Source: Nanobdellota archaeon (GTDB taxonomy: Archaea > Nanobdellota > Nanobdellia > Woesearchaeales > SM23-78). Taken from it: a DNA stretch of 32,000 bases. Numbering within the stretch: position 1 is the first letter of the stretch; every line of letters starts with the position of its first letter. The translations under genes and the position numbers were made by a program. The notes under the pieces are model-generated. The model was not told where the DNA came from. It made no database searches and worked only from the letters and a program-made list of their open reading frames with translations. Location: contig JBBSWA010000031.1 of assembly GCA_038046485.1 (NCBI GenBank), positions 13,270-45,269 on the forward strand, written 5' to 3'. Positions 18,585-22,178 of the stretch are shown one piece after another.

Positions 18585-19079
18585 ATGGTACACAACAAAC
18601 GAGCTAAGGATACTAGACAACGTGGCAACCACACTCACGGCTGGGGTAGCAAGAAAAAGCACCGAGGTTCCGGACATCGAGGTGGAAAAGGAAACGCTGG
18701 ATCTGGAAAGAAAGCAGACCAGAAAAAACCCAGCTACTGGGCAGATAAAAATTTCCAAGGCAAACACGGCTTTCACAGTCATTCCCAAGCTTTGCTTCAA
18801 AACCCCATCAACTTAGATGACTTACAGATTCGACTGAATACCCTTGTAACTCAAGGTAAAGCAAAGAAGCACGGAGATAGCTATGAGATTAACCTCAATG
18901 AATTAGGCTATAACAAGCTGCTTGCTTCTGGAAAAGTCGCTCATAAGTTTAAAATTACCGTGGATCATGCCTCTTCAAAAGCTGTTTCCAAAGTTCAAGA
19001 AAAGGGCGGAGAAGTTATGGTCTTAAAAGTAAAGGAAGTAAAAGAAGTAAAAAAAGAAGTGAAGAGTGAGAAGGAATGA
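18585..19079 (+). CDS. rpl15: 50S ribosomal protein uL15, with a K/E/V-rich tail
   Basis: 'HRGSGHRGGKGNAGSGKK' Gly/Lys loop. Canonical slot before secY. Confidence 0.93.
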   Translation: MVHNKRAKDTRQRGNHTHGWGSKKKHRGSGHRGGKGNAGSGKKADQKKPSYWADKNFQGKHGFHSHSQALLQNPINLDDLQIRLNTLVTQGKAKKHGDSYEINLNELGYNKLLASGKVAHKFKITVDHASSKAVSKVQEKGGEVMVLKVKEVKEVKKEVKSEKE

Positions 19080-19420
19080 ACCAATTTTTCCAAGAAGAAC
19101 GCATCTCTATTTGGACAGGAGAGTCCAATCGATATTTTTTTTCTGTGCCTGCCGAAGCTCGGCCTGATTTCAATGCCTTAGGTAGTGCCTTACAAGAAGT
19201 TCTTGAAGATAGAGGACCTGGTTATCACACTTCTTTGGAGGTGTCTTATGGCTCTCTTCGCTTAAACAATCTTGATTTTGATGTTCGAATGAGCTATGAT
19301 TCTAGGTTGTCCGCATTGGAAGTACGAGTTACTGCAAACCCTTCCCTTACAGTCCTAGACTGCTCTTGCCTAATAACTGATATTAATGGAATCATCCCCT
19401 TACTCAGAAGTGAACCATGA
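19076..19420 (+). CDS. hypothetical acidic, lysine-free protein inserted between uL15 and SecY
   Basis: The 114-aa ORF exactly fills the gap. ATGA overlaps on both sides (19076-19079 with the uL15 stop, 19417-20 with the secY start). No motif recognised. Confidence 0.6.
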   Translation: MNQFFQEERISIWTGESNRYFFSVPAEARPDFNALGSALQEVLEDRGPGYHTSLEVSYGSLRLNNLDFDVRMSYDSRLSALEVRVTANPSLTVLDCSCLITDINGIIPLLRSEP

Positions 19421-20787
19421 GCTTTTTTGATGCGATACTTCAAAACCTACCCGAAGTTGCAGGGCCTGAACAGAAGAAGTTAGGCTTTAAAGAAAAATTC
19501 AAATGGACCCTTATTACTCTTGTTTTGTTCTATGTGCTCGGCCTTGTTCCCTTATACGGCCTTGGATCTAACGCATTGCAGCAGTTCGAGTTCTTATCCA
19601 TTATCTTAGGGGCGAGCTTTGGAAGCATTATTAGCCTAGGTATCGGTCCTATTGTCACCGGAAGCATTGTTTTACAATTGCTAAATGGATCCGGTATCTT
19701 GAAGTTTGACTTAACTTCGCATGAAGGAAAAGCACGATTCCAAGGCATTCAAAAACTACTTAGCATCTTTTTCATTCTCTTTGAAGCCGGTATTTACGTA
19801 GGCATGGGCGGACTTCAACCTGCTGCAGGCATCCCCGCTTTGTTCCTGGTCTTCCAACTCTTCTTAGGAGGCATGATTATCTTATTCATGGATGAAATTG
19901 TGAGTAAATGGGGCTTTGGATCAGGTATTAGCTTATTTATTGCAGCTGGCGTGAGTCAAAGTGTGTTAATCCGGGCTTTGAACCCCTTTGCAAGTCCTAC
20001 TAATCCAACGATTGCAGCAGGAGCGATTCCTGCTATCTTCCAATCCTTAGCCCGTGGAGACCCGATGACTTCTGTTAGACTCCTAGCCAGCATTGCTGCT
20101 ACCGTTGTTGTCTTTATGATTGTTGTCTATGTTCAAAGCATGAAAGTAGAAATTCCCTTATCTTTTGGAAGGGTACGCGGTCATGGCATCCGATGGCCCT
20201 TGAACTTTATGTACACCAGCAACATCCCTGTTATTTTAGTGGCTGCACTGATTGCTAACGTTCAGTTATTAGGCAGCTTGCTGCAAAACTGGGGATATCC
20301 CCTCTTTGGACACTTCAGTGGGGGACAAGCCATCTCTGGCTTTGCTTTCTGGCTCAATCCGCCTAATGTACTTGAACAGATTCTTACTGGCAGCATTTCC
20401 GTACTCACCTTCCTCCATGCTCTTGTCTATATCTTTGTTTTAATGGGCGGCAGCGTACTCTTTAGTTATTTTTGGGTTCAAACCAGCGGGATGGATGCCC
20501 GGAGCCAAGCTGAACAAATGTTGAAATCAGGACTGCAAGTACCTGGCTTTAGAAAAGATGCCCGTGTATTGGAGCGATTGCTAGAACGATACATCGGACC
20601 TTTGACGTTTATGGGTGGCTGTGCCGTTGGGCTACTTGCTGCCCTTGCGGATATTTCCGGTGCTCTTACTTCCGGAACAGGTTTATTGTTGACAGTTATG
20701 ATCGTCTATAAACTGTATGAAGATATTGCAAGACAGCACATGATGGACATGAACCCCATGATGCGGCAGTTCATGGGTGGGTCGTAG
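19417..20787 (+). CDS. secY: preprotein translocase subunit SecY
   Basis: 10-TM protein with typical N-terminus 'LPEVAGPEQKKLGFKEKFKWTL' and 'FGSGISLFIAAGV'. Canonical position after uL15. Confidence 0.95.
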   Translation: MSFFDAILQNLPEVAGPEQKKLGFKEKFKWTLITLVLFYVLGLVPLYGLGSNALQQFEFLSIILGASFGSIISLGIGPIVTGSIVLQLLNGSGILKFDLTSHEGKARFQGIQKLLSIFFILFEAGIYVGMGGLQPAAGIPALFLVFQLFLGGMIILFMDEIVSKWGFGSGISLFIAAGVSQSVLIRALNPFASPTNPTIAAGAIPAIFQSLARGDPMTSVRLLASIAATVVVFMIVVYVQSMKVEIPLSFGRVRGHGIRWPLNFMYTSNIPVILVAALIANVQLLGSLLQNWGYPLFGHFSGGQAISGFAFWLNPPNVLEQILTGSISVLTFLHALVYIFVLMGGSVLFSYFWVQTSGMDARSQAEQMLKSGLQVPGFRKDARVLERLLERYIGPLTFMGGCAVGLLAALADISGALTSGTGLLLTVMIVYKLYEDIARQHMMDMNPMMRQFMGGS

Positions 20788-20793
20788 GTATCC

Positions 20794-21300
20794 ATGCCTT
20801 CCTTTACCTCCCCTAACAAAGAACCTCTGGAAAAACTATTTGTTTCTGTTCGAGCTATTCTGGAAAACAATAAACTCCTTACTCTAAGCACGTACGATAA
20901 AAAGCTAAAACAACCCTGTGTTTGTTCTGCATATTATTGCTTTGACAAAGAGCTTAATCTTTACATCTGGACAGATCCGAAGAGTGAACATGGTCGGAAT
21001 ATTGAACAGAATTCAAACGTTGCTGTAAATATAGCTGATACAGCTCAACCCTTGGGAGGGCTTTTGCAAGGCTTGCAGATCACAGCTAAGGCAAAACAAG
21101 TTACTGCTAAGGAACTTCTTGTTATCGGTGCACTTTATATGAAACGATTTCCTAAGGTATCTGCATGGGTGAAAAAAGCAATTGATTTTCATACGAAAGG
21201 ATTTCAAAGTCGGCTTTACAAGATTCAATCCCACAAAATTAAGATCTTTGATGAGAAAACCTTTGGAAAAGAAGAATATCAGGAACTTATCTTTCGATAA
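20794..21300 (+). CDS. pyridoxamine 5'-phosphate oxidase-like (split-barrel FMN-binding) family protein
   Basis: The pattern 'LLTLSTYDKK..QPCVCSAYYCFDKELNLYIWTDPKSEHGRNIEQNSNVAVNI...LQITAKAKQV' fits the PNPOx-like / general-stress-26 fold profile. By-eye call only. Confidence 0.5.
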   Translation: MPSFTSPNKEPLEKLFVSVRAILENNKLLTLSTYDKKLKQPCVCSAYYCFDKELNLYIWTDPKSEHGRNIEQNSNVAVNIADTAQPLGGLLQGLQITAKAKQVTAKELLVIGALYMKRFPKVSAWVKKAIDFHTKGFQSRLYKIQSHKIKIFDEKTFGKEEYQELIFR

Positions 21301-21341
21301 AAGAGAGAACCTTTAAATAACGCCTGTCTCATAAACTTTTC

Positions 21342-22178
21342 ATGATCAATCTTTCTTCGTGGAGAACATGGATTGTCTTTGCGGTTACGCTCATGGTTGT
21401 GACTTGGGCCTTGTATTTGATCTATGTGGTTGATACCATGGCCTCTAAACAAGCTAGTCTCTCTCAACCAGTGCCTAAGCTGGAAGTGGAGAAGACCGAG
21501 CAGCAGTGCTTCCAACGCATCCAAGAACCCATTCCTTCTCTTCTTAATCATCCTACGCTGGTTAAAGGAATACCTACTATGGAATTTCAAGGTCACTTGG
21601 TTCCAATCCTTATCACTCCCACCCGATATGCTGCGCTAAACATGGATACGTACCAAAGTCTGGTTCAGGAATCCATCACTAAAGGCTTTCCTTCTTGTGT
21701 GAAAGAGGTCGGTGGCTATACAATCGAAAATCTCCAAGTTCAGACTAATTTTGATGCGGAAGGACCCCTAACAATCAACCTGCAATACAAGGTTCGTTGG
21801 GAGAACAAGATCCTTAAAGAAGGACGTGCTGCTCTTATGGTTTATTTTAGCCCCAAACACCTCTTTGAGTTTGTTCACTCTTACGTGGAGATCCAACGAA
21901 CCACTCCAGCCATTCGGCTTTCTGATTTAGAAGCCCTTGCACAGAAACACGGCATTTCCCTTGAACTTTACGGATTTGGTGATACTGTGGTTGCGAAGCT
22001 TCAAGATCTTCGAACGGCTTCAACTGCTGGTGAAGGGGTACCTCCTCATTTCATTTACTTGGCCATGCAGTTTCCCTGGCAAGAGCCCATTTCAGGAGCA
22101 GAACTACTCTCCTTTGATAAAATCAAGACTTCCAGTCCAATTGCCTTTAGACAAGGATCCTTTTGGATTGTAAAATAA
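21342..22178 (+). CDS. hypothetical membrane-anchored protein
   Basis: 278-aa ORF with a single N-terminal TM helix 'WRTWIVFAVTLMVVTWALYLIYVV'. No motif recognised. Confidence 0.55.
   Translation: MINLSSWRTWIVFAVTLMVVTWALYLIYVVDTMASKQASLSQPVPKLEVEKTEQQCFQRIQEPIPSLLNHPTLVKGIPTMEFQGHLVPILITPTRYAALNMDTYQSLVQESITKGFPSCVKEVGGYTIENLQVQTNFDAEGPLTINLQYKVRWENKILKEGRAALMVYFSPKHLFEFVHSYVEIQRTTPAIRLSDLEALAQKHGISLELYGFGDTVVAKLQDLRTASTAGEGVPPHFIYLAMQFPWQEPISGAELLSFDKIKTSSPIAFRQGSFWIVK

Follow-up and report, generated by a model that had tools for sequence, protein, structure and literature searches.

We describe a small protein gene lodged between the genes for ribosomal protein uL15 and for SecY in a 32,000-nucleotide (nt) stretch of DNA from a Nanobdellota archaeon (hereafter the window; assembly GCA_038046485.1, contig JBBSWA010000031.1, positions 13,270 to 45,269 of the forward strand, or C31:13270-45269 of our source genome G000). 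The canonical gene order of this operon in DPANN archaea is ...L18-S5-L30-L15-secY (PMC10833476). In the window, an open reading frame (ORF) of 114 amino acids (aa), here called the slot ORF (19076..19420, + strand), stands between uL15 and secY, overlaps both through a stop/start ATGA, has relatives in the same position of one clade only, and is predicted to encode a soluble domain. In the reading that we favour, and hold to be fairly probable, the slot ORF is a young single-copy passenger that was inserted once into a 4-nt uL15/secY overlap; the relay of translation to secY would be the constant, selected feature of the junction, and the protein itself would be dispensable.

A clade-restricted ORF in the uL15-secY junction

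The slot ORF fills the junction exactly. On its upstream side uL15 (18585..19079, + strand; PF00828, E 1.9e-12) encodes 164 aa with a Lys/Glu-rich tail ending in ...KSEKE, and its stop TGA (19077-19079) shares an ATGA (19076..19079, + strand) with the ATG of the slot ORF (19076-19078), the junction reading ...GAAGGAATGAACC. On the downstream side, the stop TGA of the slot ORF (19418-19420) shares a second ATGA (19417..19420, + strand) with the ATG of secY (19417-19419), within ...GTGAACCATGAGC, also written ...AGTGAACCATGAGC; secY itself (19417..20787, + strand; PF00344, E 2.9e-65; NF006341, 366 bits) encodes 456 aa. Coordinates and sequence agree here with an earlier annotation of the window made from its letters alone (the sequence-only reading), which had reported an ORF exactly filling this junction with ATGA at both ends. 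A Shine-Dalgarno (SD)-like GTGAG, recognised in the sequence at 19066..19070 (+ strand), lies within the uL15 tail codons KSEKE, 5 nt before the slot-ORF ATG. Upstream of start codons in G000, the strongest enrichment among 5-mers is that of the GGAGGTGA type; GGTGA and GTGAA are among the most enriched, and GTGAG is enriched 2.6x. Across the genus, the DNA of the last uL15 codons (K-S-E-K-E/A) keeps the form AGTGA(G/A)AAGG(A/C)ATGA (window 19040-19079; L004, L033, L045-L049); L048 and L049 carry AGTGAAA at the equivalent position of the tail, immediately before secY. Since this string doubles as an SD-like site and as the start of the next cistron, the low-complexity K/E tail of uL15 appears to be partly constrained by the downstream start signal.

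The source genome (1.53 Mb in 80 contigs, 89.9% complete) was set beside the two congeneric reference genomes among those searched (G001 and G002), L045 (GCA_041643055.1; uL15 88-89% identical to that of the window), L046 (Logan SRR32573209; 85-86%), L047 (a JGI contig that ends before secY; 88%), L048 and L049 (67-68%), and the organism behind ENA contig ERZ27296333 (1,033 bp; hereafter ERZ), which is known at the level of proteins and coordinates. Close uL15 relatives bear names that place the organism in the Nanoarchaeia/Woesearchaeota group (DPANN). All uL15 proteins at least 65% identical to that of the window were examined one by one for the content of their junction, and the uL15-secY junction was measured at about 40 loci, anchored on secY and uL15. 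Three Hainich groundwater samples gave independent assemblies that contain the DNA of this locus, over 1.8-6.3 kb and with 0-1 differences, so that an assembly artefact is excluded as the source of the insert; they offer no population variation to work with.

Searching 1.84 billion representative proteins with HMMER returned one true homologue of the slot protein, P0002 from ERZ (108 aa, 57% identity, E 1.6e-25). Its contig carries uL15 (164 aa, 12-506), P0002 (503-829) and a further gene from position 826, with 4-nt overlaps at both junctions. P0126 (122 aa; L046:2577-2945) likewise separates uL15 from secY, shares an ATGA with each of them, and is 29-30% identical to the slot protein (in-frame tblastn E 9e-7; hhalign E 5.9e-5). 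The two have in common (R/H)Y-x-SS/SV...E-x-x-PD-x-x-A-x-x-x-AL, the strands (S/T)LR(L/I)...F-x-V...Y and a C-terminal LLP/PLL...EP, similarities which mark P0126 as a divergent but, to judge by its sequence, genuine homologue. In L047 a partial, non-SecY ORF begins on the uL15 ATGA and runs for at least 27 codons, where the contig ends. A protein search of 40 relatives, G001 and G002 included, gave no match to the slot protein; a profile of the three full-length sequences, run against 400 genomes of the order, gave two matches at E ~0.01, as chance predicts, and none beyond these; and no homologue of the slot ORF turned up when contigs of JGI metagenomes and of GTDB genomes were scanned by pattern. 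Within the G000 assembly the DNA of the ORF is single-copy, with no other match better than 19-29 nt, and a duplication from elsewhere in that genome was rejected for want of a second copy. The giant repeat proteins P0003-P0005 (670-3099 aa) matched the slot ORF at E 2e-7 to 3e-4 over 5-6 repeated stretches, for example the 'YTSLQLNNLGNPVISYYD...LKLAVC' repeats against 'HTSLEVSYGSLRLNNLDFDVRMSYD' of the slot ORF; we set them aside as probably repeat-inflated, compositional matches between beta-strand repeats.

In an IQ-TREE phylogeny of a single 164-aa protein, uL15, the loci L048 and L049, where uL15 and secY overlap directly, are basal to a derived clade (support 96/96) composed of (G002, ERZ) and (G000, G001, L045, L046, L047). 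All seven members of this clade carry an in-frame, stop-free slot ORF, of 12, 12, 15, 108, 114, 122 or at least 27 aa; ATGA is present at the uL15 end in 7/7 and at the secY end in all six whose contig reaches secY. Because full-length homologues occur in both halves of the clade, its ancestor would have had the long gene, inserted into the direct overlap. The full-length gene is absent from five of the nine genus-level lineages, being reduced there to 12-15 codons or to nothing, and from 40 other genomes of the order. Outside the genus uL15 stops on TAA, TAG or TGA, secY begins at -25 to +147 nt except at one locus, where 375 nt of AT-rich non-coding DNA intervene, and none of the more than 25 uL15-secY spacers examined there is bridged by an ORF. 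The 11 spacers of the sister genus span 1-147 nt, with lengths in all three residues modulo 3, and are not bridged either. The 375-nt case (L032, G031:C18, ~1126-1500) comes from a different family of the order and is a very AT-rich, ORF-free gap between a uL15 with a TAA stop and secY; secY is evidently uncoupled there, probably with a promoter of its own. The earlier proposal of a lineage-specific coding ORF in this slot is thus borne out by clade-restricted homologues in the same slot, and the overlaps that it had taken to imply coupling are kept in every clade member.

Coding status, constraint and predicted fold

At the local base composition, an open frame of 112 codons in the register that links both ATGA has a chance of ~1e-3 x 1/3, or ~3e-4. 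Each of the three full-length homologues (108, 114 and 122 aa) has an open frame, and the only indels that separate them are in multiples of three, so that the frame is kept wherever the ORF is present. Had the ORFs of G000 and L046 been homologous out of frame, this would have pointed to openness without sequence constraint; no such homology was found, all significant similarity being in frame. Under a 4th-order, 3-periodic Markov model trained on long ORFs of G000, the slot ORF scores +0.087 bits/codon in its own frame and -0.26 to -0.93 in the other five, and the L046 ORF follows the same pattern. As a null explanation, the sequence-only reading had offered an expanded non-coding spacer that is open by accident. 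Its orphan status in all curated family libraries and a coding score at the low end for real genes would fit a spacer, but the rarity of a correctly phased open frame, three open full-length versions in different organisms and a protein-level homologue at E 1.6e-25 would not; the same-slot homologues P0002 and P0126 effectively refute this explanation, and we regard it as almost certainly wrong. An RNA element was also rejected (sub-threshold noise only in Rfam; folding z-score -0.24). From these sequence comparisons we conclude that the slot ORF is a translated protein gene.

Constraint on this protein is uneven. Between G000 and L046, nonsynonymous (dN) and synonymous (dS) divergence and their ratio (omega) are 0.10, 1.45 and 0.07 for uL15 and 0.07, 1.80 and 0.04 for SecY; the slot ORF has dN 0.92, dS 2.1 and omega ~0.45-0.6 (flanking dS 1.45-1.8), with dS near saturation, and thus a nonsynonymous rate ~10x that of uL15. 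The dN/dS check suggested by the sequence-only reading came out in favour of constraint, dN (0.92) lying below dS (~1.5-2.1), although the estimate is weak, with dS near saturation and DNA at hand for two of the three homologues. Across the deeper split between G000 and ERZ, the slot ORF is 57% and uL15 65% identical, and the comparable pair G000-G002 has dS of 1.5-3.1, with synonymous sites saturated; an identity of 57% across such a distance would be impossible for an unconstrained sequence. We conclude from these alignments that the protein has stayed constrained in G000 and ERZ, that selection on it is relaxed in L046 and L047, and that constraint has been lost in G001, L045 and G002.

The composition of the slot protein is as had been counted by hand, with 0 Lys, 9 Arg, 7 Asp, 9 Glu (16 Asp+Glu) and 1 His, and its operon neighbours are indeed Lys-rich (12-18% Lys in uL18, uS5, uL30 and uL15, against an average of 7.8% in 887 long ORFs of G000). 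As a trait, however, the Lys-free, acidic composition is peculiar to G000. Lys counts are 0, 4 and 4 and net charges -7, -2 and +1 across the three homologues, so that the family is merely Lys-poor and Arg-rich, and composition was rejected as a functional clue because it is not conserved. The absence of a recognisable motif, also remarked on earlier, extends to Pfam, NCBIfam, PHROGs, PDB and Rfam. Pfam, NCBIfam and PHROGs, where they were run on the three homologues, likewise gave no match above the cut-off. A Pfam match to LRR_4 (E 0.038) was rejected as below the cut-off, a sequence-profile search of PDB gave TPR/OGT matches only (E >= 0.13), and Foldseek found no match at E < 1e-3 against PDB or the viral models of BFVD. 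No significant similarity to ribosomal proteins or to SecE/Sec61beta/SecG was seen in Pfam, NCBIfam, the PDB profile search or Foldseek, and inspection by eye found no signal peptide or transmembrane segment.

AlphaFold2, given the three-sequence alignment, predicts a beta-alpha-beta4-alpha domain (predicted local distance difference test, pLDDT, 75.4; predicted template modelling score, pTM, 0.67) with strands (E) and helices (H) at E17-23, H32-44, E53-57, E60-64, E68-75, E80-87 and H97-110. P0126 folded alone was modelled with less confidence (pLDDT 53.5), but from its first helix to its end the elements follow one another as in the slot protein. Structure prediction, one of the checks proposed beforehand, thus gives a confident mixed alpha/beta domain whose order of elements is common to a 29%-identical homologue. 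Positions invariant in all three homologues are mostly core hydrophobics together with Pro and Gly, plus E27-x-x-P30-D31 and R62, and no catalytic-looking conserved polar cluster is present across the three. The same order of elements, with one helix-packed antiparallel sheet, occurs in the two-layer sandwiches of KA1, PGM domain 4, the adaptin appendage and COR (Foldseek 3dpt, 2mj7, 5wi2, 1wqa); these matches have E > 1e-3, template modelling (TM) scores of 0.42-0.55 and identities of 9-16%, and the topology is generic, so that no functional inference is justified. The slot protein defines a new family of very few members, and its fold is predicted with confidence.

Could such a domain serve its neighbours? 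The sequence-only reading had suggested a lineage-specific factor that acts at the exit-tunnel side of the ribosome or at the SecYEG translocon, its synthesis being coordinated with that of uL15 and of SecY. The 4-nt overlaps with both neighbours and the predicted folded, soluble domain would suit such a factor, and overlaps of this length are described as enriched among subunits of heteromeric complexes (PMC10666635). Against it, the protein is missing from five of the nine lineages, both congeneric reference genomes among them, evolves very fast, has no conserved charged or polar surface motif beyond E27-x-x-P30-D31 and R62, and resembles no ribosomal or Sec component. Repeated loss in close relatives and a nonsynonymous rate ~10x that of uL15 make this role less likely, and we hold it to be quite improbable.

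In-frame collapse and a proposed relay of translation to secY

In three members of the derived clade the slot ORF has shrunk to a few codons without breaking the chain of overlaps. The gap between uL15 and secY measures 31 nt in G001, 31 nt in L045 and 40 nt in G002, and in each case is read through, stop-free, from the uL15 ATGA to the secY ATGA by a mini-ORF of 12 (MIFRPAIALGEP, then the stop), 12 (MILCPSHDPGEL, then the stop) and 15 codons (MISLLTQTSLPANSP, then the stop), respectively. The G002 mini-ORF is identical in two further JGI contigs. Those of G001 and L045 share 27/39 positions in DNA and may go back to one common deletion event; mini-ORFs of different lineages are not recognisably alike beyond their ends. 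Read against the uL15 tree, the mini-ORFs are what in-frame deletions left behind; such deletions took place at least twice, a single time in the G002 line and once or twice in G001/L045.

Overlapping ATGA motifs support termination-reinitiation coupling in archaea and bacteria (PMC6728339), and intergenic distances of ~20 nt almost abolished coupling in the six gene pairs tested (PMC10666635). At such a sensitivity, an insert of 337 nt, or remnants of 31-40 nt, would uncouple secY unless translated from stop to start. The chain of overlaps is kept across the seven lineages, as far as their contigs reach, while the protein collapses, which argues that an unbroken translated bridge is the invariant, selected property of the junction. 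We hypothesise the following course of events. The ancestral state, in a small genus of groundwater Woesearchaeales-type (DPANN) archaea, would have been the 4-nt uL15/secY overlap, into which the passenger was inserted a single time. Ribosomes that end uL15 at UGA would start again on the AUG overlapping it and translate the passenger as far as its own UGA, which shares bases with the secY AUG; re-initiation there would keep secY coupled to the ribosomal-protein operon despite 337 extra bases. At least two lineages would later have deleted nearly all of the passenger in frame, leaving relay mini-ORFs of 12-15 codons with both ATGA overlaps, and purifying selection on the slot protein would be moderate in some lineages and relaxed in others.

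A simpler version of this idea is that the ORF is only a relay, the insert being open solely so that ribosomes reach secY and the peptide a by-product whose conservation and fold are incidental. The in-frame collapses in G001, L045 and G002 with both ATGA overlaps kept are what it would predict, and an omega of ~0.5 between G000 and L046, a coding score that is low but positive and a composition that is not conserved are all compatible with it; analogous bridge ORFs are also known in mycobacterial interspersed repetitive units (MIRUs; PMC3184786). A free peptide should nevertheless have become randomised, as the mini-ORFs did, and this is difficult to reconcile with the 57% identity between G000 and ERZ despite saturation at the G000-G002 distance. 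The confident mixed alpha/beta model, the order of secondary structure common to a 29%-identical homologue and the predominance of hydrophobic or structural residues (Pro, Gly) among the positions kept in all three homologues speak in the same direction, and we consider the relay without a constrained protein unlikely, if worth keeping in view.

Several observations also weigh against a passenger whose selected feature is the relay. Only two or three independent in-frame collapses are available, which makes the case for selection on the relay modest (~0.04 by chance, estimated). An SD-like GTGAA or GGTGA lies just upstream of secY in several members, and from this sequence it is possible that secY has some independent initiation, without coupling. 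The coding score of the slot ORF stands only at the 10th percentile of real gene windows, and 5% of long shadow ORFs equal it, which puts it near their 95th percentile. Rates are discordant, with 29% identity to the near L046 against 57% to the distant ERZ, and this needs lineage-specific relaxation or allele exchange. Finally, the gene after P0002 is cut at 69 aa and was taken as secY by position only.

A bolder extension of the passenger reading would see the uL15/secY overlap as a forced-translation slot, in which inserts survive only as an open frame phased to both overlaps and are translated at ribosomal-protein levels from the first day. The family of 108-122 aa would then have been born de novo from such an insert and shaped into a benign folded domain, and a single genus would show its whole life cycle, with lineages in which it is absent, full-length under constraint, full-length but drifting, or collapsed to a relay of 12-15 codons. 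We offer this as a speculation, and a rather unlikely one.

The borders of the insert bear on how it arrived. A 7-bp direct repeat, TGAACCA, was read from the sequence and set against the empty-like sites of relatives; its left copy lies at 19077..19083 (+ strand), and its right copy, at 19411..19417 (+ strand), shares bases with an SD-like GTGAA (19410-19414) and runs into the secY ATG by one base. The repeat that brackets the inserted DNA may be a target-site duplication or a microhomology trace of the original insertion, or a product of chance. Together with the presence of filled and empty-like sites among relatives, it would be expected of the remnant of a small mobile element, resembling a miniature inverted-repeat transposable element (MITE) or a MIRU, which would have landed in the ATGA overlap by transposition, with an ORF as part of its design. 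The insert is single-copy in G000, however, with no DNA match there beyond the short ones given above; the profile search of 400 genomes gave nothing beyond chance; terminal inverted repeats are absent, as is any unusual RNA or DNA structure (z -0.24); and the right copy of the repeat is also found in G001, which lacks the long ORF, as part of the SD and start region of secY. A mobile origin of this kind is in our view very improbable. The 3' end (G)GTGAAnnATGA is retained in G000, G001 and L045 and coincides with the SD-like motif, and the presence of this motif before secY explains the conserved ...EP and ...EL endings, ahead of the stop, of the slot ORFs.

Elsewhere in G000, mini-ORFs of 14, 3 and 8 codons with a double ATGA stand between long open frames at C3:13595 (+), C45:1690 (+) and C65:23694 (+), and the genome has 11 double-ATGA small ORFs of up to 130 codons in total. 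It is possible that the three are further relay ORFs.

Comparison with known systems and neighbouring genes

In the archaeal S10-spc cluster, non-ribosomal passengers such as aIF1/SUI1, the RNase P protein Rpp29, SecY and Adk are, like the slot gene, embedded and co-translated in a ribosomal-protein superoperon. These are ancient and widely conserved, whereas the slot gene occurs in only part of one genus, changes rapidly and has been lost repeatedly. With the termination-reinitiation pairs of Huber et al. (2019, PMC6728339; 2023, PMC10666635), the junction has in common co-directional 4-nt stop/start overlaps, here two in series (uL15/ORF and ORF/secY) and read from sequence, and SD-like motifs inside the upstream coding sequence. 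It differs from them in having a putatively dispensable middle cistron whose length ranges, from one relative to another, between 12 and 122 codons with both overlaps intact. For a bridge ORF in inserted operon DNA, the closest analogy is with the mycobacterial MIRUs (Supply et al. 1997, as summarised in PMC3184786), in which extra DNA within a polycistron also carries an ORF overlapping the flanking stop and start. According to that summary MIRUs are repeats of 40-100 bp in ~40-50 copies; the slot insert is single-copy and 337 bp long, and, unlike the MIRUs there described, it encodes a predicted folded domain with protein-level conservation between two lineages. It is thus a bridge ORF in starting on the upstream stop and ending on the downstream start, but not a repeated element.

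Full-text searches of the literature yielded no account of a gene in the uL15-secY slot. The present case contributes a compact series inside a single genus, from empty through full-length and drifting to collapsed to a relay. It shows, for one small clade, that a new cistron can be accommodated at the most conserved gene junction of the archaeal ribosomal-protein operon if the stop/start chain is kept, and that a decayed passenger leaves a mini-ORF, not a plain spacer. The locus therefore offers a natural test case both for the strictness with which secY depends on termination-reinitiation coupling in archaea and for the birth and death of orphan genes inside essential operons of reduced-genome DPANN archaea. 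We see no sign of a new ribosomal or translocon component here, which keeps the immediate impact on biology modest.

Two further observations concern the surroundings of the slot. Downstream, the stretch 20794-22178, which begins 6 nt after secY, carries a PNPOx-like split-barrel protein (PF01243, E 8e-10) followed by a 278-aa orphan, and not adenylate kinase; no match to the PNPOx-like protein was seen at the congener locus L004, and in L046 a 279-aa ORF directly follows secY. Upstream, a uL15 variant of 141 aa on a 32,337-bp contig (P0006) is 99% identical to the uL15 of the window and ends in ...SIFQEKC in place of the K/E tail, which suggests a strain or an assembly with a frameshift near the 3' end of uL15, just upstream of the slot.

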